From assembly GCA_963620575.1 (NCBI GenBank), contig CAVFBC010000001.1, positions 111,912 to 175,911 on the forward strand: a stretch of 64,000 bases of DNA, given 5' to 3'. Positions 39,201-63,323 of this stretch are shown piece by piece. This DNA comes from Alistipes putredinis (GTDB taxonomy: Bacteria > Bacteroidota > Bacteroidia > Bacteroidales > Marinilabiliaceae). Position 1 is the first letter of the stretch; each line of letters starts with the position of its first letter. The translations under genes and the position numbers were made by a program. The notes beneath the pieces were generated by a model, which was not told the origin of the DNA, searched no databases, and was given only the letters and a program-made list of their open reading frames with translations.

Positions 39201-39367
39201 CTATGCGTTTACTGTTGAGAGGTTTATATTATTTATATCTGCTGCGAAAATAATCAAAACTATTCTAAGTACAGATAAGCAATAAAAAAGAAACAGGTTT
39301 GCCCGTTTTTCGTAGAATTATTGCGAAATTTATGCGCATTTTGCCACGACTCTATTAAAAATTGTCC

Positions 39368-41149
39368 ATGAAGAAGTTTAACACCAACAGAATCAGTTTC
39401 TTGGTGCTCGGCCCACTTGGCTTGTTCATCATCCTTATTCTCGGCATCTCCTTTTACGTTTATTTCGCCTTGAAGGCTGATCTCGAAAAGTTGCAATATG
39501 ACAGTCTGACCACCTGCCTGAGCAACCTCCGCGAGAGCATGGATCAGCGTCATGCTGGTTTTGAGCGGGCGGCTGGCCTTTTCAATGATGAGTATGACAC
39601 TTTCTACGATGCTGTGGCCGAAAATGACACCGCCACCATCGAGGATGAGCTTAAGTGGTCCGCATCCCCTGCGCAGGCTGCGGGCTATATATTTGTCAAC
39701 ATGGATGGTGACATCGTCGTCTCGAGTGTCGCACGCAAATATATTGACGAGGAAAAGTTGAGGGAGGTGACTGAGGCTACCGATAAGATGAGCATGATCA
39801 CGGCTGCTGGCGACTTCCTCGGTGACATTGTGACCGAGTACACTTCGTTTGTGGTTAAAAATTTTGATGGAGAGAAGATTGGCATTGTCTACCTCTTGGC
39901 GAGTGACCCCGATTCGCAGATCAGCACCATTTCGCTCCGCAAGCAGATTGGTGGTGATTCTTTCGTCTTCTTCGGTGACAAGTGCGTCCTCTGCACCAAC
40001 GAGGCGCGCGACCCGTCATCTGTCGTGCTCGACCCTGACATCCGCAAGACTGTCTATGAGAAGATGACGGCTTGGAACGGCACCTCCAACATGCTTGGCC
40101 GTCAAGCATATATGTCGTCTGTTCCACTCCTTGACTACACAGGTCGCACAATTGGCTCAATCCTAGTCAAGGCAGACACAAGCAGCACCGACGCTATTAT
40201 TGACTCTGTGCAGTTCATTTTGCCTGTTGTCATCGTAGTTCTCGTTTGCATCTTCGTACTCCTTGCCATCCGACTGAAGAGAAAACTCATTAACCCCATT
40301 GAGAAACTCGTAGGAACACTTGACCGTATTGCTCAGGGCGACTTGACTCAGGTGATTGAGGATGACAATAATTGTGTTGAGATATCAAATCTCACAAAGA
40401 GTATCAGGATAACTGAGGATCGCATCCGCAATGTCATCATCCCTATCCATGACACAGCAGAGGCTCTTCTGAATGCCTCCGGTCAGCTCCAGAGGGCCTC
40501 GGAGAGCCTCTCCAATGCGGCTAACCGTCAAGCTGCCTCACTTGAGGAAATATCCAGCTCTATGGAGGAGATGGGCGCCAACATCCAACAGAACACCGAT
40601 AACTCTCTCCACACCAACAAACTGACTGAGGAGATGAGCGCTATGGCGACAAGGCTCGGCAAAGCCAGTGGCAACAGCTTCGAGGCAATTCAGAATATCG
40701 CAAACAACATTAATGACATCAACGACCTTGTCAGCCAAACAAACATCCTGGCTCTCAACGCCTCTGTCGAGGCTGCGCGAGCTGGTGAACATGGCCAAGG
40801 TTTCGGTGTCGTCGCAAAAGAGGTAGGGCGACTTGCTGAGCAGACCCATGAGACGGCCGACAGCATCAACGAGACTGCAACCAGCAGTATCAATGAGGCC
40901 GAGGAGAGCTATAACCAGACGCAGCAACTCATGCCCCGAATTGAGAAGATTGCGAGCCTCATCAAGGAGATTACTACCGCCTCTGTCGAGCAGTCATCCG
41001 GCGTTCAGCAGGTTAACACAGCCATAATGGACCTCAACCGCGTCACCCAGCAAAATGCCGCTGGCGCTGAGGAGATTGCCGCAAGCACAGTGCAAATGCG
41101 TGACATGATTGACGAGCTTAATAAGTCAGTCTCTATTTTCAAGATTTAG
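39368..41149 (+). CDS. Methyl-accepting chemotaxis protein with a roughly 250-aa extracytoplasmic Cache-like sensor, HAMP and MA domains
   Basis: Two TM helices, HAMP INPIEKLVGTLDRIAQGDLTQ and the conserved hairpin tip [40 protein letters not shown] at 39368; the ORF track starts at an upstream TTG. Confidence 0.92.
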   Translation: MKKFNTNRISFLVLGPLGLFIILILGISFYVYFALKADLEKLQYDSLTTCLSNLRESMDQRHAGFERAAGLFNDEYDTFYDAVAENDTATIEDELKWSASPAQAAGYIFVNMDGDIVVSSVARKYIDEEKLREVTEATDKMSMITAAGDFLGDIVTEYTSFVVKNFDGEKIGIVYLLASDPDSQISTISLRKQIGGDSFVFFGDKCVLCTNEARDPSSVVLDPDIRKTVYEKMTAWNGTSNMLGRQAYMSSVPLLDYTGRTIGSILVKADTSSTDAIIDSVQFILPVVIVVLVCIFVLLAIRLKRKLINPIEKLVGTLDRIAQGDLTQVIEDDNNCVEISNLTKSIRITEDRIRNVIIPIHDTAEALLNASGQLQRASESLSNAANRQAASLEEISSSMEEMGANIQQNTDNSLHTNKLTEEMSAMATRLGKASGNSFEAIQNIANNINDINDLVSQTNILALNASVEAARAGEHGQGFGVVAKEVGRLAEQTHETADSINETATSSINEAEESYNQTQQLMPRIEKIASLIKEITTASVEQSSGVQQVNTAIMDLNRVTQQNAAGAEEIAASTVQMRDMIDELNKSVSIFKI

Positions 41150-41186
41150 GTCGGCATGGGCTCTTCGCCCAATGTCCTATAACAAT

Positions 41187-41229
41187 AAAAAACGCCTCAG
41201 TTTGGTCACCCCAAAACGGAGGCGTTTTT
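41187..41229 (+). terminator. Rho-independent terminator after the MCP gene
   Basis: aaaaaacgcctc ... gaggcgttttt. Confidence 0.7.
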
Positions 41230-41623
41230 GCGTTTCGTCACTACTTTGCCGTGTTTCGTCAATAAGGTTGAGTTGCTCCCTATGCCTTAGCGTAAGGTGC
41301 GTAATTTAGCATCGCAGAACAGAGAAACCATTGCCAATGGCAGGCCACCGGGCCGGTTTCATTTGTGCCGCCCCTCACCCTTGGGCAGTCACAATTGCCA
41401 ATTCAATTCACTTTTCAAGCCATTGGATCCCCATTTGTCAGTGTGAAGAGACGTATGAGGCTCTCTTCATTGCAGGTCTGTTTGGCTGACGCTTTAAGAA
41501 AATCAACATCGCTAAGGATCTTAATGTTGAAGCATCTCCCTTGTGAGATTGAGAAAATGAGACCCCGCGAATTTGAGAATACAATGTGAGTGAAATAACA
41601 TTCATCGTTATTGGACAACATTT

Positions 41624-41667
41624 CAACCCCACCACGTTCTCTGAAACTGTTGGTGGGGTTTCTTTTT
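41624..41667 (+). terminator. Rho-independent terminator with no assigned gene upstream
   Basis: 10-bp perfect stem aaccccacca/tggtggggtt followed by tctttttg. Confidence 0.6.
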
Positions 41668-41769
41668 GCCTCTCAAAACCGAACAGATGATTATTTTCAG
41701 CGTATAATGGTGCGACATCTTTGCGCAGAATTAAATATATGTTGTATCTTTACGTAATTTTAGATTGAT

Positions 41770-42348
41770 ATGCTTATGACTAAAATAGGGGCCAATAAAG
41801 ACTTCCTTGAGTTCGCCTACCAGCTATATCACACAATGCAGGCCAACGAGATTAACCTCGTCTACGAAGGCGTTGTGACGCAGGAGATTACCAAGACATT
41901 TACAGCTCTCACCGAGAAGAACATGGTCAAAAACGAGGAGACCAGCCAGGTGCAGCGCAAGGTCTTCAATGTCATGGTTGAGTGTCTCCAGAACATATCT
42001 AAGCATGCCGACCCGATGGACGGTGAGGAGGATGAGGAACGCCGCGGCATTGTGCTCGTGTCTCATGGCGAGGCGAGCTATAACGTAATCACAGGTAACG
42101 TTATCAAGGCGGAGAAAAAGGCAGGTCTCGAAGCAACCCTTGAGCATATCAACAGCCTCGACAAGGAAGGCCTCTCAGCTCTCTACAAACAGCAGATTCT
42201 TGGTGGTAAGATCTCTGAGAAAGGTGGAGCCGGCCTTGGTTTCATTGACATAGCGAAGAAGAGCGGTAATAAGATCAACTATCAGTTCAAGGATCTTGAT
42301 GACAACTACTGCTTCTTCATCATTATCACGACAATATCACGTAATTAA
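41770..42348 (+). CDS. SiaB-like GHKL-fold protein kinase (anti-sigma-factor-kinase-like)
   Basis: 192 aa. VFNVMVECLQNISKHA (N-box-like) and EKGGAGLGFIDIAKKSG (G-box-like). It lies directly upstream of a DUF1987 gene, as in siaB-siaC. Confidence 0.6.
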   Translation: MLMTKIGANKDFLEFAYQLYHTMQANEINLVYEGVVTQEITKTFTALTEKNMVKNEETSQVQRKVFNVMVECLQNISKHADPMDGEEDEERRGIVLVSHGEASYNVITGNVIKAEKKAGLEATLEHINSLDKEGLSALYKQQILGGKISEKGGAGLGFIDIAKKSGNKINYQFKDLDDNYCFFIIITTISRN

Positions 42349-42369
42349 CAGACACACATACCCTAAACA

Positions 42370-42735
42370 ATGGACGTATTAGAAATAAAAGGCACTGATG
42401 ATACCCCTTCGGTATTGATGAACAAGGATGCCAATGTCATTGAGATCTCCGGCCGTTCACTCCCCGAGGACGTGGCTACCTTCTACAAGCCCGTCATGGA
42501 TTGGATCGACAAATACAAGGAGGAGCCCAATGACCATATCGATGTCTGCTTCAAACTCGAATATTTCAACACTGCCTCTTCTAAAATGCTTCTTGACATT
42601 CTCCTTAAGTTTGAGGCTATCTCTGACAAGGTGACCGTCAAGTGGTATTCTCACGAGGAGGAGGAGGATATCGAGGATGCCGGCAAGGAGTATGAGGACA
42701 TCGTCGAGGTTCCTTTTGAGTTCATTAAGTACTAA
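42370..42735 (+). CDS. SiaC-like DUF1987 regulatory (phospho)protein
   Basis: 121 aa. ISGRSLPEDVATFYKPVMDWI...FKLEYFNTASSKMLLDIL is the DUF1987 pattern, with Thr at residue 68 in YFNT. Confidence 0.7.
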   Translation: MDVLEIKGTDDTPSVLMNKDANVIEISGRSLPEDVATFYKPVMDWIDKYKEEPNDHIDVCFKLEYFNTASSKMLLDILLKFEAISDKVTVKWYSHEEEEDIEDAGKEYEDIVEVPFEFIKY

Positions 42736-42828
42736 AGCGGAGTTTTCCTGTTCGCAGTAAGTTTCGCACCGCTCAGCTTAACTGATTCTGGTGCGCCCCA
42801 CTACCCTATCTATTCCTACTAAAGCATT

Positions 42829-45800
42829 ATGAGTGAGGAGATTCTTGAACACCTGATGAACCTGTTCGGCATTCTTGCCAAGCAGGGTGGCGGTGCAACG
42901 GATGTTGAGATTAACTTCCTTAGTAAGTTTCTCAGCGACCAGATAGCCTCCGCCAAGGTGGGCGAGTATCTCGACAAGTTTAAGGAGAAAGCAAGCGAGC
43001 GCGCCCAGTTTGATGAGACTAAGGGTCAGATTGTCGTCGACATGAAGGATTCGATGAAGACCCTGAAAATCTGCCGCGCAGCAAACAAAGCCCTCTCAAA
43101 GGAGCAGAAAGTTGTCGTGCTTGTCCGACTCTTTGAGATGGAGCAAGTCTATGACGAGGCCTTCGGCGGGAAAATGGTCGCCGTAAAGGCTTGGAAGGGC
43201 AAGAGCCGCAAGGAGGCAGAGGAACTCGATGTCGAGGAGAGTGCTGAGACGATAATTAAGCTCCGTGAGGAGGTGGTCAAGACAGCAGGTGAGACCTTTA
43301 CCCTCGCCAAGGATGAGATTGACAATATCAAGCTCTTCTGCAACGCCCAGACGACCGCCGCCGCTCAACCGGTGGCTAATCTTGATAAACCCGATTTCCT
43401 CATAGCTGATGCTTGTGATGACGCTGCTTATTCTCAGGCGTGCCACATTGTCGATTCTACTATCGACGGCTTTTTCGCAATTCTCCGAATCGACAGCGCA
43501 AATCTTTTTTTCCTTAAATATCAGGGTTCGAGGGATGTCTCTATAAATGGTCTGACTGTAAACCCCGGCACGGTCTACCCTCTGCCGAGCGGATCGTTTG
43601 TCAAGACCCCTCGCGGATTGCTATATTACACGGACATAGCCGCACGACTCTCAAAGGAGGTTAATGTCCAAAAAATCTCCTTCGAGGTTAATCATGTCTG
43701 GTTCCGTTTTAAGACGGGCGGCATAGGCCTCAGAGACATTAATATGTTTGAGGAGCAGGGGAAGCTGGTCGGCATCATGGGTGCGTCTGGCGCTGGCAAA
43801 ACCACTCTTCTCAATGTTCTGTGTGGCAATGAGGCACCGTCTGAGGGCGAGGTCCTCATCAACGGGCTCAACCTGCATACTCAGAAAGAGCAACTTGAAG
43901 GCGTCATAGGCCTCATTCCCCAAGATGATTTGCTCATTGAGGAATTGACTGTCTATCAGAACCTTTATTACAGTGCCAAGCTTTGTTTCAAAGCTCTGTC
44001 TGAGGAGGAGATTAATGCCAAGGTTGAGAAGACTCTCCGTGACCTTGGTCTCTATGAGCGCAAAGATTTGCAGGTCGGCTCTCCTCTCAACAAGATGATT
44101 TCCGGTGGTCAGCGTAAGAGGCTTAACATTGCGCTTGAGCTTATTCGCGAGCCGGGCGTTCTCTTCGTTGATGAGCCTACATCAGGCCTCTCCAGCCGTG
44201 ACTCTGAGAATGTGATGAATTTGCTGCGTGAGTTGGCTCTCAAAGGCAAACTTGTCTTTGTCGTCATTCACCAGCCCTCGTCGGACATCTACAAGATGTT
44301 CGACAAGATGTTTATCCTCGATACCGGCGGTTATCCCGTCTATTATGGTAACCCGACAGAGAGTGTCATTCATTTTAAGACCGAGGATAACCAGACAAAT
44401 GCTGACGTAGGCCAGTGCCCCACTTGCGGTAACGTTAATCCCGAGTTGGTGTTCAACATATTGGATGCCAGCGAGAAGGATGAGTATGGTAATACAACTA
44501 ACCGCCGTAAGAAGAGTGCGGAGGATTGGAACAAGATTTATAATGAGAAGGTTCTCCCAAAGGTCCCGAGAGTGACGACGGTCAAGGAGACTCCGCCTAA
44601 GAGTCTCGACATCCCGAGCTGGTTCAAGCAGTTCTGGATCTACACACAGCGCGATTTCTGGGCCAAGATAAGCAACACACAGTACATAGCGCTCAATATT
44701 CTTGAGGCGCCTGTGCTTGGCTTCATCCTTGCCTACCTCATCCGCTACATTGTTGACCCCGACTCGGATGTCTATGTCTTCCGCGAGAACGCCAACATAC
44801 CCATCTACATATTCATGGGTACGGTGGTCGCCATTTTCTTCGGCCTTATCATAAGTGCCGAGGAGATTTTCAAGGACGCCAAAATCCTTAAGCGCGAGAG
44901 ATTCCTCAACCTCAGCCGCTCGGCATACCTTATGAGTAAGATTTTCATACTCATGGGCATATCAGCCATCCAGATGTTCCTTTTTGTGCTGGTTGGCAAC
45001 TGGGAGATATCGTTCACGGGCATGAACTTTGAGTTCTGGCTCATGCTTTTCACTGTGGCTGTCTCGTCAGATATTTTGGGTCTCATCATATCGTCCACGT
45101 TCAACTCCATCGTCACTATCTATATCATGATTCCACTTATCATGATTCCCCAGATGGTTCTCGGCGGAGCCATGTTCACGTTCGATAAACTTAACAAGGA
45201 TATTTCGGCGGTTGACAAGGTGCCTCTTGTCGCGGAGGTCATCCCCGCACGTTATGCATATGAGGGTCTCATTGTCTATCAGTACAAGAACAATGACTTT
45301 GAGAAGGTTTTCTTTGGAGACGAACTCCTTGAGCGTCAGGCCGATTTCAAGACTGTCTATTATCTGCCCAAGGTAAAGGATGTGCTCGATGCCGCCCGGA
45401 AGACTTACAAGTCAATGCCGGCGGATGACGATGCGGCTAAAGAGCAATACGAGGTAAATCTCGCACTCGTCAAAAACGAGCTCGGCAAGGAGACTCGCCG
45501 TGTGCCCGGCATCAAGTTTGACTCTCTTGACGAGATAACCCCCGAGTCGTTCTGTGACGACGTCTATAACGCGGCTGATGCCTATATCACCCAACTGAAT
45601 GACTTCTATCAGGATCAGTTCATGAAGGCGAATACTATGCGCGAGCGACGTATTAACTACTATCTCGAAAACCAGCCGGATGTCTACAACGCCCTCAAGA
45701 ACAGTTGCTACAACGAGGCTGTCTATGACGTCGTGACGAAGACTTTCGACAAGAATAAGATTCTTCGTGATGGCGACCGACTCATACAAATTAAGGACCC

Positions 45801-46098
45801 TATCTATCAGATTCCTGAGCCAGAGGGTATTCTCCGTTTCCGAAGCCAATTCTTCGCCCCCTATAAGTATTTCTTTGGCACATATATTGAAACTCTCTGG
45901 TTCAATGTGATTGCCGTATGGCTCATATCAGCATTCCTCTACGTAATTCTCTATTATGATGTGGCAAGGCGCTCATTCGAGGCGGTAGAGGATTTGCATA
46001 TCGGCAAAAGATTTGCAAAACTGAAACCAGTTTTCTCAAAGTGCGGATGCGTTATAAAGTCTTGTCTCTCAAAATCTAAGAAAGGGACGGATAAATAG
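42829..46098 (+). CDS. ABCG/White-type ABC transporter (NBD then ABC-2 TMD) with a roughly 300-aa N-terminal extension
   Basis: Walker A GASGAGKTT, signature ISGGQRKRLNIA, Walker B VLFVDEPTSGL, H-loop VIHQPS and C-terminal multi-TM ABC-2 region. The N-terminus has TerB-like helical repeats and an FHA-like beta segment SINGLTVNPGTVYPL; both assignments are weak. Confidence 0.85.
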   Translation: MSEEILEHLMNLFGILAKQGGGATDVEINFLSKFLSDQIASAKVGEYLDKFKEKASERAQFDETKGQIVVDMKDSMKTLKICRAANKALSKEQKVVVLVRLFEMEQVYDEAFGGKMVAVKAWKGKSRKEAEELDVEESAETIIKLREEVVKTAGETFTLAKDEIDNIKLFCNAQTTAAAQPVANLDKPDFLIADACDDAAYSQACHIVDSTIDGFFAILRIDSANLFFLKYQGSRDVSINGLTVNPGTVYPLPSGSFVKTPRGLLYYTDIAARLSKEVNVQKISFEVNHVWFRFKTGGIGLRDINMFEEQGKLVGIMGASGAGKTTLLNVLCGNEAPSEGEVLINGLNLHTQKEQLEGVIGLIPQDDLLIEELTVYQNLYYSAKLCFKALSEEEINAKVEKTLRDLGLYERKDLQVGSPLNKMISGGQRKRLNIALELIREPGVLFVDEPTSGLSSRDSENVMNLLRELALKGKLVFVVIHQPSSDIYKMFDKMFILDTGGYPVYYGNPTESVIHFKTEDNQTNADVGQCPTCGNVNPELVFNILDASEKDEYGNTTNRRKKSAEDWNKIYNEKVLPKVPRVTTVKETPPKSLDIPSWFKQFWIYTQRDFWAKISNTQYIALNILEAPVLGFILAYLIRYIVDPDSDVYVFRENANIPIYIFMGTVVAIFFGLIISAEEIFKDAKILKRERFLNLSRSAYLMSKIFILMGISAIQMFLFVLVGNWEISFTGMNFEFWLMLFTVAVSSDILGLIISSTFNSIVTIYIMIPLIMIPQMVLGGAMFTFDKLNKDISAVDKVPLVAEVIPARYAYEGLIVYQYKNNDFEKVFFGDELLERQADFKTVYYLPKVKDVLDAARKTYKSMPADDDAAKEQYEVNLALVKNELGKETRRVPGIKFDSLDEITPESFCDDVYNAADAYITQLNDFYQDQFMKANTMRERRINYYLENQPDVYNALKNSCYNEAVYDVVTKTFDKNKILRDGDRLIQIKDPIYQIPEPEGILRFRSQFFAPYKYFFGTYIETLWFNVIAVWLISAFLYVILYYDVARRSFEAVEDLHIGKRFAKLKPVFSKCGCVIKSCLSKSKKGTDK

Positions 46099-46187
46099 AG
46101 GGGTGTCTTATTTACCCGAAAAAACGGAAACAAAAATCATCATTCCATAGTATACTAAGGAAGAACAGGCTAATAATTAATTCTACT

Positions 46188-47114
46188 ATGAAAATCATTG
46201 CCAAAATCAATACTATCAAACTGGCCGCGGCTGCCGTCTGCGCATGCCTCATGACCTCTTGCGGCAGCGGCTCGTCAAGCAAAAATGCCAACGAGTTTGA
46301 TACTATCCCTCAAAATCTCATTGGCGAGCCACTTCAACTCTCAGAGAATGTGGTGAACGACATGATTCAGAATATCTCCTCTCCTGTTGAGATGGCAAAC
46401 CAGATTCTCAAGAGTGGAGCAGCTTTTGACCAGTCTGTTCTTAATGACGCTGAGAGGATGAAGGATTACAGCACCAGATTCAAGCGTTCGCTTAACCTTG
46501 GCGTCTATAGTGCGGATCTTGGCTATATCAATACGTTCAATAAGAACAGTGTTGTCGTCTCTTACCTTCTTGCTGTCAAGGAACTCGCTGACGGCATTAG
46601 TGTCGGTCAATTCCTTGATTTCAACACACTAAGCCGACTCGCAAAGAATAACACAAACCTTGATTCTCTCAAGCAGCTCTCCGTCTCAAGCTTCAACGAG
46701 ATGGATAAGTATCTTCGCAAGAATAACCACTCGAGTGTGTCAACAGCCATTGTGGCTGGCGCATGGGTAGAGGGTATCTACATTACTTGCCGAGTCATTG
46801 AGCAAACTAATGACGCTGAACTTATTAACCGACTTGGCGAGCAGAAAGACATTGTCGGCATTCTTCTCATCATCCTCAACAACTATAGCAAGGGCGATGC
46901 TAATTTCCAGGCACTCGTTAGCAAGGTTGACGAAGTGAAGAAGATTTATGACGACGTGGTGATAACTTATGAGCTTGGCGAACCTGTCACGACTGAGAAA
47001 GATGGCATGCTTGTCATCGAGCAGAACGAGATAACTCACGTCAAGATTACGCCCGAGCAGGTCTCAAGCATTATTGCCAAGATTAAGGATCTCCGCCAGT
47101 TTATTGTTGACTAA
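46188..47114 (+). CDS. Helical lipoprotein of unknown function (module copy A, large subunit)
   Basis: Lipobox LMTSC; roughly 65% identical to the product of 47682-48587. Confidence 0.7.
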   Translation: MKIIAKINTIKLAAAAVCACLMTSCGSGSSSKNANEFDTIPQNLIGEPLQLSENVVNDMIQNISSPVEMANQILKSGAAFDQSVLNDAERMKDYSTRFKRSLNLGVYSADLGYINTFNKNSVVVSYLLAVKELADGISVGQFLDFNTLSRLAKNNTNLDSLKQLSVSSFNEMDKYLRKNNHSSVSTAIVAGAWVEGIYITCRVIEQTNDAELINRLGEQKDIVGILLIILNNYSKGDANFQALVSKVDEVKKIYDDVVITYELGEPVTTEKDGMLVIEQNEITHVKITPEQVSSIIAKIKDLRQFIVD

Positions 47115-47144
47115 GAAACCCTACATTTTCCACATACATCTATC

Positions 47145-47588
47145 ATGAAGCAGTTGTTATTATCCCTCGTAGCCATTTTCGGTATGGTCTCTTCTGTCAA
47201 CGCTCAGTGCGGTGACGAGCTCATGAAGCAGGCTCTTGGCGCCATGGGGAATTATCAGTATATCAAGGACTTTGATATTAAACTCCAAGGCGGAACAAGC
47301 AAGGTCGGCACTAAGTTCTCTGTCGTCCTCAACAGCCGTACTCACTATCAGGTCAACATAGCCAATGGCTCCGGCAACAGCGAGAATGTGGTTGTCGAGA
47401 TTTATGACGGCGATAAGTTGATTGGCTCAAACAATGCCAACGGTAAGGTTTTCACTGCTTTCCAGTTCATCTGCTCTAAGACTGGGGCTTACAAGCTCCA
47501 TGTTTGCACAGTAGGTGGAACAGAGGCTTGCGCCCGTGCTGTCCTCTCCCTTGTCAAGCAGTACTCCGAGGCCGAAATGCCTAAGTAG
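47145..47588 (+). CDS. Small secreted 4-Cys beta-rich protein (module copy A, small subunit)
   Basis: SPI signal ending VNA|QCGDE; roughly 94% identical in the mature part to the product of 48593-49033. Confidence 0.7.
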   Translation: MKQLLLSLVAIFGMVSSVNAQCGDELMKQALGAMGNYQYIKDFDIKLQGGTSKVGTKFSVVLNSRTHYQVNIANGSGNSENVVVEIYDGDKLIGSNNANGKVFTAFQFICSKTGAYKLHVCTVGGTEACARAVLSLVKQYSEAEMPK

Positions 47589-47681
47589 CAATCTCGGAAA
47601 ATTAACCAAACGACTAATAATCACAATGTCATCCGATTTGCCTTTGGTAGCGTCGGATTTGATACTAAAAGACTCTTAAAA

Positions 47682-48587
47682 ATGAATTTTAAGGCACTCA
47701 TCGGTGGTCTCGCTGTCCCCGCTGTAATATTCTCTATGGCCTCATGCTCTTGTGGCAGCGATAACGGCCAACTTAATAACAACATCACCGAGGAGAAAGC
47801 AGACTCTGAACTTGTTGTAAGCGGCGAGGTTGTCAGCGACATGATTCAGAATATCTCTTCCCCTGTCGAGATGGCTAATGAGATTAAGAATTCTGGTGTC
47901 GGTTTTTCTAGGGATATTCTCAACGAGGCCGGTAAAGAAGGTCAGTATGAGACAAATTTCAAGAAAGCTGTGAATCTTGGTGTTTATGCTGCCGATCTCG
48001 GCTACATCAACACGTTCAGCAAGACTACTGTTGTTGTCGATTACTTGACCTCTATCAAGCGACTTGCAGACGGACTCGGTGTCGGTCAGTTCCTTGATTT
48101 CTCAACTCTTTCCGCTCTTGCCAAGAATAGCACAAATCTCGATTCGCTCAAGCAGCTCTCTGTCAATAGTTTCAACAACATTGACAAGTATCTTCGTGAG
48201 CAGCATCGTTCAAATATCTCAACTGCCATTGTAGTTGGCACTTGGATTGAGGGCATTTACATCACGGGTCAGGTCATTTCTCAAACCAATGACAAGGGTC
48301 TTGTCGACCGTCTTGGCGAGCAAAAAAATATTGTTGAGATTCTCGACATCGTTGTCAGCAGCCGCACTGAATCTGAATTCAAGAACCTTGGCAAGATGAT
48401 GGGTGATCTCAAGTCAATCTATGACGGAGTCCGAATTACAACCGAGCTGGGCCAGCCTGTGACTAAGGAGGTTGACGGTATGCTTGTCATTGAGCAGAAC
48501 GAGATAACTCATGTTGAGATTACTCCTGAGCAGGTTAACTCTATCATCGAGCAGGTCAACGCCATCCGCAACTCAATCATCCGATAA
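47682..48587 (+). CDS. Helical lipoprotein of unknown function (module copy B, large subunit)
   Basis: Lipobox SMASC; paralog of 46188-47114. Confidence 0.7.
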   Translation: MNFKALIGGLAVPAVIFSMASCSCGSDNGQLNNNITEEKADSELVVSGEVVSDMIQNISSPVEMANEIKNSGVGFSRDILNEAGKEGQYETNFKKAVNLGVYAADLGYINTFSKTTVVVDYLTSIKRLADGLGVGQFLDFSTLSALAKNSTNLDSLKQLSVNSFNNIDKYLREQHRSNISTAIVVGTWIEGIYITGQVISQTNDKGLVDRLGEQKNIVEILDIVVSSRTESEFKNLGKMMGDLKSIYDGVRITTELGQPVTKEVDGMLVIEQNEITHVEITPEQVNSIIEQVNAIRNSIIR

Positions 48588-48592
48588 AGCTA

Positions 48593-49033
48593 ATGAAGAA
48601 GTTTTTCTTTCTCATTGCGGTATTGTTCCTCTCTGCGGGCAGCTCTTTCGCCCAGTGTGGCGACGAGCTTATGAAGCAGGCTCTCGGTGCAATGGGTAGC
48701 TATCAGTACATCAAGGACTTTGACATAAAACTGTCAGCTGGCACAAGCAAGGTTGGCTCCAAGTTCTCTGTCGTCCTTAACAGCCGAACCCACTATCAGG
48801 TTAACATTGCTAATGGCTCTGGCAACTCAGAGAATGTTGTGGTGGAGATTTATGATGGTGACAAGCTGATTGGCTCTAACAGTGCTAATGGCAAGGTATT
48901 CACCGCCTTCCAGTTTATTTGCTCGAAGACAGGTGCCTATAAGCTCCACGTCTGCACTCAAGGTGACACGGAGGCTTGCGCTCGTGCGGTGCTTTCTCTT
49001 GTCAAGCAATATTCAGCTGCGGAGATGCCATAA
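48593..49033 (+). CDS. Small secreted 4-Cys beta-rich protein (module copy B, small subunit)
   Basis: SPI signal ending SFA|QCGDE; paralog of 47145-47588. Confidence 0.7.
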   Translation: MKKFFFLIAVLFLSAGSSFAQCGDELMKQALGAMGSYQYIKDFDIKLSAGTSKVGSKFSVVLNSRTHYQVNIANGSGNSENVVVEIYDGDKLIGSNSANGKVFTAFQFICSKTGAYKLHVCTQGDTEACARAVLSLVKQYSAAEMP

Positions 49034-49072
49034 CACTTCTTCGCCTTCCATTAAGCATAAGCGACAAATCGT

Positions 49073-49107
49073 AAACGCGCGACTTCCGAAATAGGAGTCG
49101 CGCGTTT
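49073..49107. terminator. Bidirectional terminator between the module operon and comEC
   Basis: 12-bp perfect stem aaacgcgcgact/agtcgcgcgttt. Confidence 0.75.
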
Positions 49108-49108
49108 G

Positions 49109-51151
49109 CTATTTAATCTCTATCTCATCCTGTCGTTTCATAATTGTCACGCTAAGTGAAGTCACTCTTTTCCATGCAGCGGCAATTTCGCATTTGGGTC
49201 CTATTATGTATCTCGCATTGTGATTGACAGCAATTTCTGGTCCTAAATTGCAGTTGATCAGGTATATGTCGCAAATGGGCAATGTGTCTATATAATCAGT
49301 GTTGATAACGGCTATTCTCATCTCTTGGGTGCTGATTATAATCCCCCGCCCCAAGCTCTTTATCTCTTTTTCTGTCCACCGCCTCTTTTTCTCGATGTGC
49401 CTTACTGCTTTTATCGCGCTGTGGTTGGTAGTGTCGCTTACATAGGAGACCGAGTTATGCCTGTCTTCTGATAAGACTATGCCCGTCTCGCCATTTGAAC
49501 AGAACAAACATACCCCACTCTCTCGTCTCGTTTCATTGGCAATAAGTACGGATAAGAAGCAAACGAGCGAAAAGCAAAGTGCGCCAAGCCAATGCCGGTC
49601 ACGTTTGCGAAAGGCATAAAAGGCGATGACTATGAGGAGAGACAACGTGGCCGCCTCTGCCATTCCAAAGGCTGTGCATCCTATGGTGGCCATGGGAAGT
49701 GAGGCTGCCCATTCACAATAGCCAATCACCAACGCCAGACACTTGTCTATTACCCATCCTAATCCATTGCTTAATAGAGGAATCCAAGATGTTAACGGGC
49801 AAATGACCGCCCCGATGAAGATCCATCTGATGGGTTCAAGCACCACAAGGTTGTTTATCCAGAAATATGTGGGGAATGAGTTGAAGCAGTAGAGCATGAT
49901 GGGCAAAGTTGCCAATTGAGCCACAATGCTTATTGACAAACAGCCATAAAGCCACTTGATTGGCCCTCTTTGCCTCTCTACAAAGGGTCGCAATGTTGGC
50001 GTGGCAGACAATATTCCTCCCACGGCAGCAAAACTTAACCATAAGCCCGCACTGGTCACAGACGACGGGTCAGCTAATAGGATGACAAACAAGGCAGCCC
50101 ACAAGGAGTGGAAACTTGGCAACCTGCGGCCCAGCACACTCTCTAATGTAAGAAAACTAAACATTATGGAGGATCTTACTATCGAGGGCGCCATGCCTAC
50201 TAAAAGCGCATATGCCCATATGACGCACAATGTTATGACTCCTGATGCGCGTCCCCCAAAAAGCAGGCCCATAAGGAACATAACGGCTGTTGATAAGATG
50301 CCAACATGGAGACCGCTGACAGCAAGGACATGCCCTGTGCCGCAGTCAGAGAACGCCTGTTTGACCTCCTGCGGCAACTCGCTCTTGTCCCCTAAAACGA
50401 GGGCTTGCAAAAAGACTTGGCTCTCATGGCTAACCCCGACCCTTTCAAGTGACGAGAAGAAAAAATCATGCGCCATGCCGCTTATTGATGCCATGTCCAC
50501 AGACTGGCCTTCAATTGTGGCGCTGTCTGCCCTCACTAAGAATCTGAGTCCCTGACTCTTCAGGTACTCCATATAGTCGAAGTCGCCAAATATGTCACTT
50601 CGCGGTGTCGTAAATCGCCCACTTAGCTTCACCTTCATGCCGCACTTCAGACTATGCGAGCTGTCGCAGTCTGTGGCTTTGCTTAGATTGATGGTTCTGC
50701 CCTTGAAGTTGACAAGACCCTTTATTTCTTGGGCATCTTTCCCATTGATAGCGTATGCTCTTACTACTGCGCTCACACGGTTTGTGTCTCGCTTTGTGAT
50801 GTGAGTTATCTCTCCTTCAATCTCGCACTTGCCACCTTCTGTGATAAAGTCGCCCCTGCCGTCACTGCCTCTCGTTACGCCTACTGACATGATAAACAGG
50901 GCGAATGCGCAGATTAGCAGACCGTCGCCCCACCATAGCTTGCACAAATAGCGACGTAGTGAACTTATTATTATGACAATTGCGCACAGGGAGACCGTCA
51001 GAGGCCACAAGTTTACCCCCAATGTTGTCTCTGAGCCAACATATGTTCCAATGGCCAGCATGACAGCCCATGGGGCTAAAGGCCTCTTTCGGACTGACAT
51101 CAAGACATCTTTCGAGAGATGCGAGATTATGTTTGTTAAGATGCGTCTCAT
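49109..51151 (-). CDS. comEC: ComEC/Rec2-family DNA internalisation channel protein
   Basis: 680 aa. It has N-terminal TM helices, an OB-like DUF4131 region (VKLSGRFTTPRSD..FDYMEYLKSQG) and a multi-TM competence domain (GTGHVLAVSGLHVGIL). The start may be the internal Met at about 51100. Confidence 0.8.
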   Translation of the reverse strand: MRRILTNIISHLSKDVLMSVRKRPLAPWAVMLAIGTYVGSETTLGVNLWPLTVSLCAIVIIISSLRRYLCKLWWGDGLLICAFALFIMSVGVTRGSDGRGDFITEGGKCEIEGEITHITKRDTNRVSAVVRAYAINGKDAQEIKGLVNFKGRTINLSKATDCDSSHSLKCGMKVKLSGRFTTPRSDIFGDFDYMEYLKSQGLRFLVRADSATIEGQSVDMASISGMAHDFFFSSLERVGVSHESQVFLQALVLGDKSELPQEVKQAFSDCGTGHVLAVSGLHVGILSTAVMFLMGLLFGGRASGVITLCVIWAYALLVGMAPSIVRSSIMFSFLTLESVLGRRLPSFHSLWAALFVILLADPSSVTSAGLWLSFAAVGGILSATPTLRPFVERQRGPIKWLYGCLSISIVAQLATLPIMLYCFNSFPTYFWINNLVVLEPIRWIFIGAVICPLTSWIPLLSNGLGWVIDKCLALVIGYCEWAASLPMATIGCTAFGMAEAATLSLLIVIAFYAFRKRDRHWLGALCFSLVCFLSVLIANETRRESGVCLFCSNGETGIVLSEDRHNSVSYVSDTTNHSAIKAVRHIEKKRRWTEKEIKSLGRGIIISTQEMRIAVINTDYIDTLPICDIYLINCNLGPEIAVNHNARYIIGPKCEIAAAWKRVTSLSVTIMKRQDEIEIK

Positions 51152-54994: not shown

Positions 54995-55173
54995 CAAATG
55001 TTTAACTTTGTTGCTGAGTATCCGAGCGTATCGGGTAATACAAACAAACAGAAATATAGCCTTTTATAAAACAGGCGCTATCTCGAAACCAAATAATCAC
55101 TTAACTCTAAAAACAGAGCTATTCTATTATGTTGGGAAATAATGATGGCTCCTTTACAAAAGAACGACCGAGC

Positions 55174-55701
55174 ATGCCTATGATAAAGAAATTACTTGTC
55201 ACTCTGGTTTTAACCCTGACGATGGCGCATGGCGCATTCGCCCAGGATCAATTGGCAAAGCCTAAGGCTCTGCTCACTCTTAGTTTCATCCGTTACCTCG
55301 GTTGGAGCGACGCTGCGAGGCAGGGTGACTTTGTCATCGGCGTGGTCCGCGACAGGGAGCTCGCCTCTTGGTTGACGTCTCAGTCCGAAGGTAAGAAATT
55401 CGGCTTCCAAAATGTCGTCGTCAAGAATTTCAAGTCTGTCGACGAGGTGGTAGACTGTCAGGTAATCTACGTCTCCCACAACATCAGCTTCGCCCGCAAC
55501 GCCTCCACCATCATCGACAAGGTCGGCAAGGACACACTGATTATCACGGAAGAGGAGGGCGCCGTCAAGAGCGGGGCGATGATTAACTTTGTCATCCGCG
55601 ACAGCAGGCTCAAATTCGAGCTCAGCAAGAGCAACGCACAAATGTCTAACATACAGTTCGGTCAGAAACTAACTGACATGACTGCAGCGATAAACATGTA
55701 A
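55174..55701 (+). CDS. YfiR-family (DUF4154) periplasmic protein
   Basis: Signal peptide [23 protein letters not shown]|QDQ. The pattern FIRYLGW...VIGVV.D...CQVIYVS...LIITEEEG....GAMINFV..D.RLKFELS..NA matches DUF4154 as I recall it. Confidence 0.6.
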
Positions 55702-55714
55702 TCTTAGAACAACA

Positions 55715-57460
55715 ATGAAGGGTATATCTCTCAAGGAGCGTGTCTCGAAGATGAATCTGGCGCAGAAGCTCGTGTCGGGCTTCGGCGTCATTTGCGTGTT
55801 CATCCTCCTCAACTCAATCCTTACAATAGCCATCCATTTCTACACCCGCAACCTTCAGGAGACTGAGGCTAACGAGTATCTCCCCGTCAAGTCTAACCTC
55901 GAGGTCATGATGAACAAGATTGTCGAGAGCCGCAGACTTGTGGTAAACTGGGTGTTTGTTGATCATCAGCCCAACACGCCAGATAAGGTCAAGCTCGCCG
56001 CCATCGTCAATGAGGAGTTTGACGCTGTCCTCAATGAGGTCAAGGAGGCTACTGCCGATTGGGAGACTCCCTTCACTGACACTCTCGCTATCGTTGACAC
56101 CAAGGTTCACGAGATGTTCGACCTTGAGAAGACCGTCATGAGCAACCTCTCCTCTTTCGACTCGTATGACGACCCCATCCTCCTCATGGAGAGTGAAATG
56201 CTCGTCCAGAGTGATGGCGATGTTGAGATGGCTGAGCGTGAGTTGCAGACTCTCATGTCCTCCCTCAGCGGCATTTGCGACGCCAAGTGCAATGACATTA
56301 AGCATTCTATTAATACCTCTGCCTCCATCCAGCTCGTCTTTGTCATCCTCATGAGTCTCCTCGTGCTCGGTGTGGCTGTGGTTGTCGGCCGAGTCCTCTA
56401 TATGAGCATCATTAATCCTCTCAAACGAGGTGTCGTGTTTGCCGAGGCAATTGGCAAGGGTGACCTCACGGCGCAAGTCCAGGTCGACCAGGATGATGAG
56501 ATTGGTCAGCTGTCCAAAGCCCTCCAGGGCATGGTCGAGAGCCTCAAACACACTGTCGTCTCGATTGAGCGCAACGCTAACGAGCTCGTCACCTCGGGCT
56601 CCCTCCTCAACACTTCAAGCCAGAAACTGTCAAAGGGCGCAAGTGAGCAGGCCGCAAGCGCCGAGGAGGTCTCTACGGCTATTGAGCAGATGGTGGCCAA
56701 CATTGACCAGAACACTGAGAACGCCATAGCAACCGAGAAACTGACCGCCTCGACTGTTGAGAATGTCAACCTCTCAAGCCAGTACTCTGGCGAAGCTGCC
56801 GAGGCTATGAAGACTATATCTGAGAAAATCTCAATCATCTCAGACATTGCGTTCCAAACCAATATACTTGCACTCAACGCTGCCGTCGAGGCCGTTCGAG
56901 CAGGTGAGCAGGGTCGCGGCTTCTCTGTCGTGGCTGCCGAGGTCCGTAAACTCGCTGAGCGAAGCAAGCAGGCCGCCAATGAGATTGTATCCCTTGTTAA
57001 CAAGGGTCTGAAGGTCACTCAGATGGCTGGTGAGAAGGCAAAGGCTCTTGTACCGGACATTGAGAAGACCACCGTGCTCATCAAGGAGATTTCTGCGGCA
57101 AGTATCGAGCAGAAAACAGGTGCCGAGCAGATTAACATGGCGATGCAGAACCTCAACGTCATCACTCAGGAGAACGCTTCAAGCTCCGACGAGTTGACTA
57201 ACAGCTCTGTCCTCCTCTCTTCTCTCGCTTCTAACCTCAAGCAGGCTGTCGGCTATTTCAAGCTTGATGAGGAAGCCGAGGCTGCGACCGGGGCAACGGC
57301 CGAGGTCGAGAAAAAGCCAGAAGAGCCCAAGGCAAAGGTTGAGACGGCAAAGCCAGAGCAGACTCGCCATGAAGACCCAAAGCCTATGGGTGGCGTCAAG
57401 ATTAACCTCGGAAACATTAACTCTAAAGAGTTCGATCTCGACAATTACGAGAAGTTCTAA
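55715..57460 (+). CDS. Methyl-accepting chemotaxis protein (helical periplasmic sensor, HAMP, MA domain, long C-terminal tail)
   Basis: Two TM helices, [27 protein letters not shown] and hairpin tip [37 protein letters not shown]. The tail ends ...DLDNYEKF. The start could instead be Met13 (55751). Confidence 0.92.
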
Positions 57461-57587
57461 TGCCAAAGTAGCTGGAGGTGGAGATGCCAAACCAATGAAT
57501 GATTGGCGTGTCCACCCCATGGCTTTATGAGGCTCGAAGTCCTGAATCCCAGCACAAGTCTTCAAACAGTACACTAAAGGTCAGATT

Positions 57588-57899
57588 ATGAGCAGCGTTT
57601 ATAGCCTCGAGATTTCACAGGCTGACGGCAAGAAGAACTTGAAGTTCGGAGGTGACCTTGTCATTAACCATATTGACAAGATGACCAAGGAACTCCGTGA
57701 GGCTCTCCCCTCGCCTACCGATTTGCGTGTCGAGGTGGCGGATCCGCAGAATATCGACATGACGTTCATTCAGCTTGTAGTAGCCCTCCGCCGGATGACG
57801 GAGAACGCTGGCAAGAAGTTCGAGGTGCAGACCACTCTGAAGGACGACCTGAAGGAGCTGGTTCAAAAGGCCGGCTTAGACAAGGAGTTGAAAGTTTAA
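57588..57899 (+). CDS. STAS-domain protein (anti-sigma-antagonist fold)
   Basis: 103 aa. The alternating beta/alpha pattern KFGGDLVINHIDKMTKELREAL...LRVEVADPQNIDMTFIQLVVALRR is typical of single-domain STAS proteins. Confidence 0.6.
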   Translation: MSSVYSLEISQADGKKNLKFGGDLVINHIDKMTKELREALPSPTDLRVEVADPQNIDMTFIQLVVALRRMTENAGKKFEVQTTLKDDLKELVQKAGLDKELKV

Positions 57900-57969
57900 G
57901 TAAGCCCCTTAGAAAAGACAACTTACAAACCCCCAAATTAACGACATATCCATTTTTTATAGTAACAAT

Positions 57970-58335
57970 ATGGCAAAGACAGTTCTTATTGTAGACGACT
58001 CCGAGAGTATCCGCGAGGTGGTCAACTTCACTTTGACCAACGAGGGCTACGATGTTTTGGTTGGCGTTGACGGCGAGGACGCACTCAAGTTCCTCGATGG
58101 CAGGCCTATCGACATTGTCATCACTGACCTCCACATGCCTAACCTTGACGGCCTCGGTCTCATCCGCAAGGTTCGTGAGATGGATGCTTACAAACACATT
58201 CCTATCCTTTTCCTCACAACTGAGAGCCAGACAGAGAAGAAGATGGAGGCCAAGGAGGCTGGCGCGACGGGTTGGATCATCAAGCCTTTCGTCCCCGCTA
58301 AGCTCCTCAGCGCCATCTCAAGGGTGCTCCGTTAG
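57970..58335 (+). CDS. cheY: CheY-like single-domain response regulator
   Basis: DD (LIVDDS), phospho-acceptor Asp in VITDLHMP, Thr in LTTES and Lys in IIKPF. Confidence 0.92.
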   Translation: MAKTVLIVDDSESIREVVNFTLTNEGYDVLVGVDGEDALKFLDGRPIDIVITDLHMPNLDGLGLIRKVREMDAYKHIPILFLTTESQTEKKMEAKEAGATGWIIKPFVPAKLLSAISRVLR

Positions 58336-58372
58336 AAAATATACCCTCTTCTTAGTCAATGTATTGTAGTCC

Positions 58373-60529: not shown

Positions 60530-60531
60530 CC

Positions 60532-60978
60532 ATGGATGAAATTAAGTCGGTCACCTCTTTCAAGGTTGGCGGTGAGTACTTCGCCTTCGAGACCGAGTCC
60601 ATAAGACATATTCTTGAGTATAGCGCACCCACTCGTGTGCCGCTGACCAAGCCTTTCATAAAGGGGATTATCAACAACCATGGTAACATGATTCCCGTGG
60701 TTGATTTCCGTGTCCTTGTCGGCAAAGAGTCTGATGACAGCCAACCCGAGCAAAGCATCGTGGTGGTGGCCTTTGAGACGGCTGGCAAGGAGGAACTTTG
60801 TGGTTTCAAGGTCGATGAGATGGACGATGTCTTTGAGTTCTCGCACGAGAATTTCAAACCCGAGGTGGTCATCGATGTGAACCCTGAGGTACAACGCGCG
60901 GCGGCCGGGACTATCAAGGTGGGCGACAAGTTTGTCTACCTCCTCAAGACGTCTGAGCTTGCCGACGCCCTTGTTTAA
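60532..60978 (+). CDS. cheW: CheW coupling protein
   Basis: 148 aa CheW-like fold (FKVGGEYFAFETESIRHIL...IKGIINNHGNMIPVVD); 2-nt gap after cheA. Confidence 0.88.
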   Translation: MDEIKSVTSFKVGGEYFAFETESIRHILEYSAPTRVPLTKPFIKGIINNHGNMIPVVDFRVLVGKESDDSQPEQSIVVVAFETAGKEELCGFKVDEMDDVFEFSHENFKPEVVIDVNPEVQRAAAGTIKVGDKFVYLLKTSELADALV

Positions 60979-61005
60979 ATTTCTCATCACTCCTAAACAG
61001 AGTCA

Positions 61006-61494
61006 ATGGAAGAAGAAATAATCAACTCGTTCCTGACCTTCGAGGTTAATGGCGGAATATACGGATTGCACGTGGCTAAGGTCGTCGAGATTATGGCCTA
61101 CGTCAAGCCTCAGGCCACAGGTGCTTCTGTCCCAGCCATGATTGGCATGGTCGAGCACCGCGGACGAGTGTTGCCACTCATAGATAGTGGGCTGAAGTTT
61201 AACGCAGGCCCAGTTAAAATCACTGAGCAGACCTATATTATAGTCATTTCAGTCCGAAATGGAGACGAGTTGTTCGACGTAGCCTTGGCTGTCGATCTTG
61301 TCCGCGAGGTGATGGAGATACCAGAGGACAAGCGTCTTGCCATTGACACAACATACAAGCCTGGCTATGTGCTCTTCGCAAGCCAGACTCCTGACGGACT
61401 TGGCATGTTCTTCGACCCCGACAAGGTGTTCACAGACACCGATGTCATTAAGATGGCCGAGTTTACAGCCAAGGCCAATAAACAGACCTGCTGA
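61006..61494 (+). CDS. cheW: Second CheW coupling protein
   Basis: 162 aa, FLTFEVNGGIYGLHVAKVVEIM...MIGMVEHRGRVLPLID. Confidence 0.85.
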   Translation: MEEEIINSFLTFEVNGGIYGLHVAKVVEIMAYVKPQATGASVPAMIGMVEHRGRVLPLIDSGLKFNAGPVKITEQTYIIVISVRNGDELFDVALAVDLVREVMEIPEDKRLAIDTTYKPGYVLFASQTPDGLGMFFDPDKVFTDTDVIKMAEFTAKANKQTC

Positions 61495-61498
61495 GCCT

Positions 61499-62377: not shown

Positions 62378-62387
62378 CCCGTTCGAT

Positions 62388-63311: not shown

Positions 63312-63323
63312 CCTCCCCGACGA

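Follow-up and report, generated by a model that had tools for sequence, protein, structure and literature searches.

The stretch of DNA analysed here, 64,000 nucleotides of Alistipes putredinis (assembly GCA_963620575.1, contig CAVFBC010000001.1, positions 111,912 to 175,911; hereafter the window), carries seven genes, all on the plus strand (41770-49033 in the list of open reading frames), which are named g1 to g7 in this study and which belong to a real, widely conserved and unstudied gene cluster of Bacteroidota. The core of this cluster comprises five genes, encoding a SiaB-family kinase, a SiaC-family phosphoprotein (DUF1987), an ATP-binding cassette (ABC) transporter, a lipoprotein and a small protein. 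Our preferred reading, held with a confidence slightly above even, is that a Sia-type partner switch is linked here to an ABC exporter, in the place of a diguanylate cyclase, and that the exported proteins work with the exporter in the periplasm. The arrangement suggests that the switch controls envelope export rather than the synthesis of cyclic di-GMP (c-di-GMP).

Relatives were collected by a scan of GTDB genomes, one for each species, in which the N-terminal module of the transporter g3 served as the query and which gave at least 567 confirmed stretches; locus counts below refer to the best 80 of these, and loci are designated by L numbers. The genes for the kinase, SiaC and the ABC transporter stand in the same order and tightly spaced at 80/80 loci, and the synteny of the kinase/DUF1987 pair with the transporter, on which a first-pass annotation made from the window's sequence alone had staked its proposal, is found throughout. 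The lipoprotein gene comes next in every locus with enough downstream DNA, and the small-protein gene follows it in all such loci but two (the second pair of L012, and L078). Carriers belong to several families of Bacteroidales (Marinilabiliaceae, Salinivirgaceae, Prolixibacteraceae and others) and to Cytophagales, an order in which Fulvivirga maritima has the complete cluster. A profile search returned 348 proteins; among the best 120 of the 348, which were inspected, most carry a TerB domain with or without ABC_tran, and every named source is a member of Bacteroidota. Six word-index fragments had suggested that the module is rare, which was overturned by the genome scan and the profile search. 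The seven-gene unit described in the first-pass annotation holds for the window's own clade (loci L001-L010 and L012), in which the second lipoprotein/small-protein pair is a clade-specific tandem duplication added to the five-gene core. Three changes coincide in this clade, namely loss of an upstream input block, an insertion in the TerB domain and duplication of the pair.

The kinase g1 matches the NCBIfam model SiaB_fam_kinase (167.6 bits, cut-off 85) and the solved SiaB (PDB 6kko_A, E 7e-14), and g2 matches the solved SiaC (PDB 6kko_C, E 3e-11), which together with the Pfam assignments bears out the SiaB-like and SiaC-like identities proposed earlier. Similar to the SiaABCD system, a SiaB-family GHKL-type kinase is thus paired with a DUF1987 protein that has an N-T phosphosite motif at residue 68. 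Different from that system, both proteins fall below the NCBIfam equivalog cut-offs (86 against 225 for g1 and 75 against 150 for g2), and they are therefore family members, not orthologues of the Pseudomonas proteins. The YFNT motif of g2 begins at residue 65, which places Thr at residue 68 (codon 42571-42573), aligned to the Thr of the LNTSS motif of Pseudomonas aeruginosa SiaC (PDB 6kko). The octapeptide YFNTASSK (Y65-K72) is invariant in 81/81 SiaC sequences, with the sole exception that S70 is replaced by T once. In P. aeruginosa, Thr68 is the published SiaC phosphosite and the target of SiaB, its phosphorylation prevents SiaC from binding to SiaD, and the protein encoded next to SiaC is activated when SiaC binds to it (PMC8457831). 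The residue number that the first-pass annotation had given for this site agrees with the published one, and Thr68 of g2 is the predicted equivalent phosphosite. DUF1987 proteins have been proposed as general regulators of adjacent gene products, and a structural kinship of SiaC with STAS domains has been described (PMC8457831).

Clustering of the flanking open reading frames at the 80 loci revealed four further conserved families upstream of the core on the same strand. According to Pfam, this upstream block encodes a CheB-REC protein, a GAF-PAS protein, two CheR, a CheB, a membrane GAF protein and a PP2C phosphatase. The phosphatase, an 870-amino-acid GAF-PAS-SpoIIE (PP2C) protein encoded immediately 5′ of the kinase, is present at 56/80 loci and the CheR/CheB block at 49/80, and F. 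maritima has the whole upstream set. Since the block is conserved upstream in most loci, the cluster in its common form contains an entire phosphatase-kinase-SiaC switch preceded by a large input layer. A PP2C (SpoIIE-type) phosphatase with sensor domains, encoded directly upstream in the same operon in most relatives, is a further likeness to SiaABCD, whereas the phosphatase here has GAF and PAS domains and comes with CheR/CheB genes, no GGDEF protein is present, and an ABC exporter gene follows SiaC. The logic is also that of partner-switching systems of the RsbU/RsbV/RsbW type, in which a sensor-domain PP2C opposes a GHKL kinase on a small target-binding phosphoprotein; it differs in that the presumed target is a membrane transporter, not an anti-sigma factor or a cyclase, and in that the phosphoprotein is of the DUF1987 and not the STAS type.

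The first-pass annotation had reported neither SiaA nor SiaD in the window. For the window itself this stands, as no PP2C phosphatase was detected in the 64 kb by tblastn with three related phosphatases as queries (E<0.01) and no GGDEF/GGEEF motif occurs in its open frames of at least 150 amino acids; there is likewise no cyclase among the gene clusters conserved around the 80 loci. As a description of the system it does not, given the SiaA-type PP2C upstream in most relatives, and the absence of this phosphatase from the window's clade, where the upstream block is missing and a methyl-accepting chemotaxis protein (MCP) gene takes its place, is a secondary loss. The Carboxylicivirga group likewise lacks the block, and the housekeeping genes that stand there were considered as an alternative phosphatase and rejected; they encode PorZ, a beta-propeller protein, an oxidoreductase and a GNAT protein, all unrelated. 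The full clusters (L011:85-8945, L035, L047, L073 and L082:505-8919) encode two CheR and two CheB proteins and no protein with an MCP signalling domain, and their GAF/PAS/HAMP proteins are candidates for the substrates of methylation.

The third gene encodes a half-size transporter in which the nucleotide-binding domain (NBD) precedes the transmembrane domain (TMD), with Pfam ABC_tran at residues 301-452 and ABC2_membrane at residues 601-818. Walker A lies at residue 318, SGGQ at 425 and IHQPS at 480, and Walker A, the signature, Walker B and IHQPS are conserved to at least 97% among 72 g3 orthologues. The best solved relatives are Pdr5 (7.8e-47), Cdr1, ABCA3/4/1 and ABCG5/1/2; because these are PDR, ABCG and ABCA exporters of lipids or drugs, the earlier description of g3 as a half-size NBD-TMD transporter that is ABCG-like is fair. 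The score against TIGR00955 (264.5 bits) lies far below the cut-off of 736, so that g3 is a distant relative of the eukaryotic White subfamily and not a member of it. IHQPS, read earlier as a eukaryote-like hallmark, is present but is not specific to eukaryotes. With the eukaryotic ABCG/PDR and ABCA proteins (type V exporters) g3 shares the NBD-before-TMD order, the IHQPS H-loop and, as in extracellular loop 3 (EL3) of ABCG2, an extracellular element between the last two transmembrane (TM) helices. It differs in being bacterial, in the size of this insert (~230 amino acids without a detectable homologue) and in an N-terminal regulatory module foreign to those families. In F. maritima (CP089980; L082:10001-13082), the transporter is represented by two overlapping genes, one for a TerB-ABC_tran protein of 402 amino acids and one for an ABC2_membrane protein of 629 amino acids, which reflects either a real split or a frameshift.

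The N-terminal extension of g3, for which some 300 extra residues had been noted in the first pass, is real and comprises ~285 residues in two domains; the ~230-amino-acid domain between TM5 and TM6 had been overlooked. A PDB sequence search with the N-terminal 289 amino acids gave chance-level matches only, and an AlphaFold2 (AF2) model of this part reached a mean predicted local distance difference test (pLDDT) score of 80 and a predicted template modelling (pTM) score of 0.82. The first domain is TerB-like: Pfam TerB (PF05099) matches 32/45 relatives of g3 (best 7e-12), and precomputed PF05099 assignments exist for most of the 348 proteins from the profile search. The window copy has no Pfam TerB match because of a ~44-amino-acid insertion at residues ~107-150 (43147-43278), which in the alignment is restricted to the window's clade and which is modelled as a beta-hairpin (residues 116-138) set into a helical domain, at pLDDT ~85-93.

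The second domain was modelled as a beta domain for which FHA domains make up most of the top Foldseek matches in the PDB (Rad53, CEP170, MEK1 and PNKP; E 0.2-2), the match to the CEP170 FHA domain having a Foldseek probability of 0.93 and a root-mean-square deviation of 3.1 Å over 85 columns. The best PDB sequence match of its profile is also an FHA domain, that of MEK1 (E 0.7), and there is no Pfam FHA match. Both domain types had been suggested for checking in the first-pass annotation, aptly so; TerB was recovered in relatives of g3, and FHA weakly. In a residue mapping taken from sequence alignment, not from structural superposition, only Ser223 and Asn240-Gly241 are conserved in the family, no Arg or His is invariant, and the turn aligned to S-L-N-G-T of MEK1 is variable. 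As the canonical phosphothreonine-binding residues are not conserved, we name the domain FHA-like and degenerate.

The hydropathy profile of g3 places TM1-5 at residues 619-786 and TM6 at residues 1019-1047, followed by a K/R-rich tail. Residues 787-1018 between them are assigned to the periplasm from the cytoplasmic location of the NBD and the TM order, and they sit where EL3 of ABCG proteins lies. Pfam searches with residues 830-1089 and 788-1018 gave no credible match.

The remaining genes encode predicted exported proteins. The N-terminus of g4 is hydrophobic with the lipobox LMTSC, of which Cys25 is invariant in 47 sequences, and g4 and its second copy g6 are predicted lipoproteins. Their family has no Pfam, NCBIfam or PDB sequence match, and all of its 684 homologues are named 'hypothetical'. 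An AF2 model (mean pLDDT 75) has residues 1-66 disordered (pLDDT below 50), whereupon the chain forms a helical bundle, then a long beta-hairpin and at its end a helix; Foldseek with this model against the PDB found no fold relative, the best E being 1.4 with mostly designed helical repeats. The L025 locus contains a lipoprotein paralogue of 276 amino acids (L025:17050-17880, minus strand) that is ~30% identical, lacks the C-terminal beta-hairpin and stands alone amid housekeeping genes (aspS, recJ and lipB-like), which indicates that the helical domain also occurs outside the operon.

In the family of g5 and g7, a Gln residue (Gln21) at the predicted cleavage site, VNA|QC in g5 and FA|QC in g7, is invariant in 76/76 sequences. 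According to the Q-rule described for Bacteroidetes (PMC5837995), substrates of signal peptidase I carry Gln at position +1, next to the signal peptide; g5 and g7 fit this rule and are predicted to be cleaved by this enzyme. Among 76 homologues, Cys22 is present in 62, Cys110 in 73, Cys129 in 62 and Cys121 in only 8; the earlier description of a small four-Cys protein thus applies only to the window's clade, to which the fourth Cys is specific. The family has no Pfam or NCBIfam match and no PDB relative; PDB sequence searches with the lipoprotein profile, the small-protein profile and the N-terminal 289 amino acids of g3 returned matches at chance level only, namely antibody chains, a kinetochore protein, FliS and nitrite reductase (E 0.055). 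With an exhaustive HMMER search, the small-protein family was found to have 213 representatives (E<=1e-3), most of them ~145 amino acids long. Several representatives of ~340 amino acids were scanned, and each has the small-protein domain N-terminal to the third and/or fourth (C-terminal) domains of GldM (P0148 at L081:2472-3500, P0167, P0172 and P0147); one of these fused proteins is encoded after FecR and STN/CarbopepD_reg genes and before a 1115-amino-acid protein. These fusions make the small-protein domain a wider periplasmic module of Bacteroidota.

The second pair, g6 and g7, arose by tandem duplication of 1.45-1.48 kb: direct DNA repeats occur in g4-g7 at a spacing of 1473-1479 nt, positions 47201-47500 and 48649-48948 are 82% identical, and a second pair is found only in L001-L010 and L012 among the 80 loci. 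Lipoprotein copies sort by position across the window's clade and small-protein copies do not clearly do so. The lower divergence between the small-protein copies (84% identity versus 58% for the lipoproteins) could reflect gene conversion or stronger constraint.

Correlated divergence was analysed by a mirror-tree approach, in which residuals after regression on the NBD+TMD distance were compared and assessed by Mantel tests with 500 permutations; the analysis is confounded by phylogeny and measures co-divergence, not contact. The three pairs formed by the exported proteins and the periplasmic domain of g3 are correlated with and without the window's clade: lipoprotein versus periplasmic domain (r 0.47 for all sequences, 0.43 without the clade), small protein versus periplasmic domain (0.53 and 0.43) and lipoprotein versus small protein (0.64 and 0.58), each with 0/500 permutations in the Mantel test. 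A seemingly strong co-evolution of SiaC with the N-terminal module of g3 was reduced to a weak one once the window's clade was removed, as r fell from 0.71 to 0.19 for TerB and from 0.65 to 0.28 for the FHA-like domain (Mantel 0/500 for the latter value). The exported proteins more likely make contact with the transporter through its predicted periplasmic domain.

In the model that follows from our preferred reading, a signal-responsive phosphatase and the kinase would set the phosphorylation state of SiaC Thr68, and one form of SiaC, by analogy with SiaC-SiaD the unphosphorylated one, would bind the cytoplasmic TerB/FHA-like module of the transporter dimer and thereby switch its ATPase and transport activity. 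By way of its periplasmic domain, the transporter would then pass a substrate, or a conformational change, on to the small protein and to the lipoprotein, which is tethered. Binding of one SiaC state to the TerB/FHA-like module is the most economical model because the transporter always adjoins SiaC and because this module is its only unusual cytoplasmic part; correlated divergence outside the window's clade lends weak support to such gating, which we infer. ABCG/ABCA-type membrane domains usually move lipids or other hydrophobic molecules, and given this kinship our best guess for the substrate would be a lipid-like envelope component.

Several points weigh against this reading. No phosphatase gene adjoins the switch in the window's clade or in the Carboxylicivirga group, so that the window's organism would need either an unlinked phosphatase or a different way of working. 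The FHA assignment has weak scores in both the structural and the profile comparison, and the residues by which canonical FHA domains bind phosphothreonine are not conserved. The predicted periplasmic location of residues 787-1018 comes from a simple hydropathy scan and the positive-inside rule. The co-divergence of SiaC with the N-terminal module falls without the window's clade and is for the most part a single lineage event, and the folds of the lipoprotein and the small protein yield no functional clue. Three other explanations were weighed, each of which we judge less likely than the control of an exporter by the switch.

The flow of information might run in the opposite direction, with the ABC transporter, through its TerB and periplasmic domains, and the exported proteins sensing flux or envelope stress in a BceAB-like manner and reporting to SiaB/SiaC, the output being an unlinked cyclase or regulator elsewhere in the genome. 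TerB domains are associated with stress-response systems, the window's clade has kept the switch with no phosphatase gene next to it, a chemosensory cluster is located at a distance of 6 kb, and the transporter is the only output candidate in a cluster that contains no other output enzyme. However, 56/80 loci possess a dedicated input layer (GAF, PAS, HAMP, CheR, CheB and PP2C), which makes a second sensor unnecessary, and the fully conserved catalytic motifs of the ABC protein are pump-like, although they are also retained in sensing transporters. Moreover, in the only case studied so far, SiaC acts on the product of the adjacent gene (PMC8457831), and we consider such a sensor improbable.

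The co-divergence of the exported proteins with the periplasmic domain could also be explained if g3 were no substrate transporter but a mechanotransducer similar to FtsEX or LolCDE, in which ATP hydrolysis moves the periplasmic domain and so causes activation or release of the real effectors, the lipoprotein and the small protein. Such a role would accord with the size of this domain, with two dedicated exported partners that were duplicated together in one clade, and with the absence of substrate-related enzyme genes from the cluster. Known mechanotransducers have the MacB/FtsX fold, but the membrane domain of g3 is of the ABC-2/ABCG type, members of which export lipids, polymers or drugs, and the partners are without enzyme motifs or known folds. 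A mechanotransducer is therefore, in our judgement, quite unlikely.

The logic of the switch could be reversed as well, SiaC phosphorylated at Thr68 being the active ligand that the FHA-like domain reads as a phosphothreonine. A parallel is Rv1747 of Mycobacterium tuberculosis, an ABCG-like half-size exporter of NBD-then-TMD order with N-terminal FHA-type regulatory domain(s), which is encoded beside the Ser/Thr kinase PknF and is positively regulated by Thr phosphorylation (PMC3138270), its FHA domains taking part in the activation. In that system a Hanks-type kinase phosphorylates the transporter's own linker, whereas the kinase here is of the GHKL type and its expected substrate is the separate SiaC; Rv1747 also lacks a TerB domain, a large TM5-TM6 periplasmic domain and lipoprotein/small-protein partners. 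The FHA-like fold adjoins the NBD and retains a residual correlation with SiaC outside the window's clade, but it has no invariant Arg after Gly214 and no Ser-x-x-His, its Ser-x-Asn-Gly-Thr turn is replaced by a variable T-G-x-Q/E-D, it has no Pfam FHA match, and in P. aeruginosa phosphorylation abolishes partner binding (PMC8457831), all of which makes a reversed logic improbable.

Taken to its furthest extent, the control of an exporter by the Sia-type switch would make the ancestral full cluster an unrecognised envelope export pathway of Bacteroidota. In such a pathway, methylation-adapting input through CheR/CheB acting on GAF/PAS/HAMP proteins, not on classical MCPs, would feed a PP2C/SiaB/SiaC switch and an ABCG-like pump, from which the periplasmic domain, the long-tethered lipoprotein and the small beta-rich protein, the latter two representing two new folds or families, would carry a lipid-like molecule across the periplasm. 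We regard this scheme as a whole as speculative and rather unlikely.

The operon structure of g1-g7 is backed by tight gaps, the absence of internal terminators and a flat GC profile. As the first-pass annotation had stated, the seven genes are co-directional with gaps of 5-93 nt (21, 93, 89, 30, 93 and 5 nt from g1 to g7 in the list of open reading frames). No terminator-like site was found between them in a terminator scan that admits loops of 3-8 nt only, and the GC content is level throughout the region. The two flanking terminators proposed earlier correspond to hairpin-plus-T-run sites (Table 1). The upstream one was overlooked by the scan because of its 16-nt loop and is kept in L001 and L002; the downstream one also serves the convergent ComEC gene, which ends at 49109 on the minus strand (Pfam Competence 3.2e-58). 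The Bacteroidetes promoter consensus is -33 TTTG / -7 TAnnTTTG, and a motif that we take to match it ends ~18 nt 5′ of the g1 ATG; the block holding this motif is near-identical in L001, L002, L003 and L008, and the DNA farther upstream has diverged.

Table 1. Features of the operon region and of its products (positions are those of the window).
Feature	Position	Strand	Remarks
Upstream terminator-like hairpin	41626..41667	+	CCCCACCA, 16-nt loop, TGGTGGGG, then TTTCTTTTT; read from the sequence; closes the upstream region
Bacteroidetes-type promoter-like motif	41720..41752	+	TTTG at 41720-41723, 21-nt spacer, TATCTTTA at 41745-41752
g1, SiaB-family (GHKL-type) Ser/Thr protein kinase, 192 aa	41770..42348	+	Pfam DUF6272 3e-42
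g2, SiaC-family (DUF1987) phosphoprotein, 121 aa	42370..42735	+	Pfam SiaC 3.9e-37, 127 bits, cut-off 24.5
g3, half-size ABC exporter, 1089 aa	42829..46098	+	TerB, FHA-like, NBD, TM1-5, predicted periplasmic domain, TM6, basic tail
g3 residues 1-175, TerB-like helical domain	42829..43353	+	Pfam TerB in relatives; AF2 model helical
g3 residues 190-275, FHA-like beta domain, degenerate	43396..43653	+	AF2 strands across residues 190-267
g3 residues 787-1018, hydrophilic domain of ~230 aa, predicted periplasmic	45187..45882	+	between TM5 and TM6 (hydropathy)
g4, predicted lipoprotein of unnamed family, 308 aa, copy 1	46188..47114	+	lipobox Cys25
g5, predicted small secreted beta-rich protein of unnamed family, 147 aa, copy 1	47145..47588	+	signal peptide
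g6, predicted lipoprotein, copy 2	47682..48587	+	58% identical to g4, BLASTP 2e-117
g7, predicted small secreted protein, copy 2	48593..49033	+	84% identical to g5, BLASTP 6e-93
Intrinsic-terminator-like hairpin, strong	49071..49109	+	16-bp stem, 9 G-C pairs, then T-run

An Rfam search over 41100-49200 gave a chance snoRNA match only, which indicates that no known riboswitch or leader is present there. About 400 nt of non-coding DNA (41225-41625) separate two upstream hairpins, and within it a block at ~41330-41390 (GCCAATGGCAGGCCACCGGGCCGGTTTC ... GTGCCGCCCCTCACCCTTGGGC) shows conservation in L001, L002 and, in part, L009, with no match in Rfam. Just 5′ of the operon, an MCP with sCache_3_3, HAMP and MCPsignal domains is encoded at 39362-41149 (+), followed by its own hairpin and T-run at 41188-41222. 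An MCP occupies this place in 8/11 loci of the close clade, and its identity is down to 45% at a distance at which that of the ABC protein remains 81%. It was excluded as a member of the operon on account of its own hairpin and T-run, the 620-nt gap and its absence from most relatives. About 6 kb 3′ of the operon, beyond ComEC and riboflavin genes, lies a chemosensory cluster (55129-63797, +) encoding a YfiR/HmsC-like protein, an MCP with HAMP, CheA (with Hpt, dimerisation, HATPase and CheW domains), CheW, CheR, a HATPase_c protein and CheD. The possibility of a mobile defence island was rejected, as the PADLOC defence models recovered a generic ABC-ATPase similarity for g3 and nothing for the other six proteins, and the GC profile has no island signature.

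In the literature that was searched, neither the linkage of a SiaB/SiaC pair with an ABC transporter nor the two exported families are described, in agreement with the first-pass statement that no described system of this composition was known. While the parts of the switch and the class of the transporter are known, their combination, the periplasmic domain and the two exported families appear to be new. The cyclase SiaD is the single output of SiaC-type switches that has been studied to date; here such a switch is tied to an ABC exporter. This arrangement is conserved in hundreds of species from at least two classes of Bacteroidota, among them Bacteroidales of the gut and the rumen. The hypothesis is directly testable because the cluster is compact, Thr68 offers a clear point mutation and cultured species carry the cluster (Anaerophaga, Carboxylicivirga, Alkaliflexus and Fulvivirga). 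The cluster also defines two protein families and one transporter domain without known relatives, all predicted to be exported or periplasmic, in a phylum whose envelope lipid and lipoprotein traffic is poorly understood. If SiaC gates the pump, this would represent post-translational control of a bacterial ABC transporter by a diffusible phosphoprotein, and it would give DUF1987, DUF6272 and TerB a concrete role.

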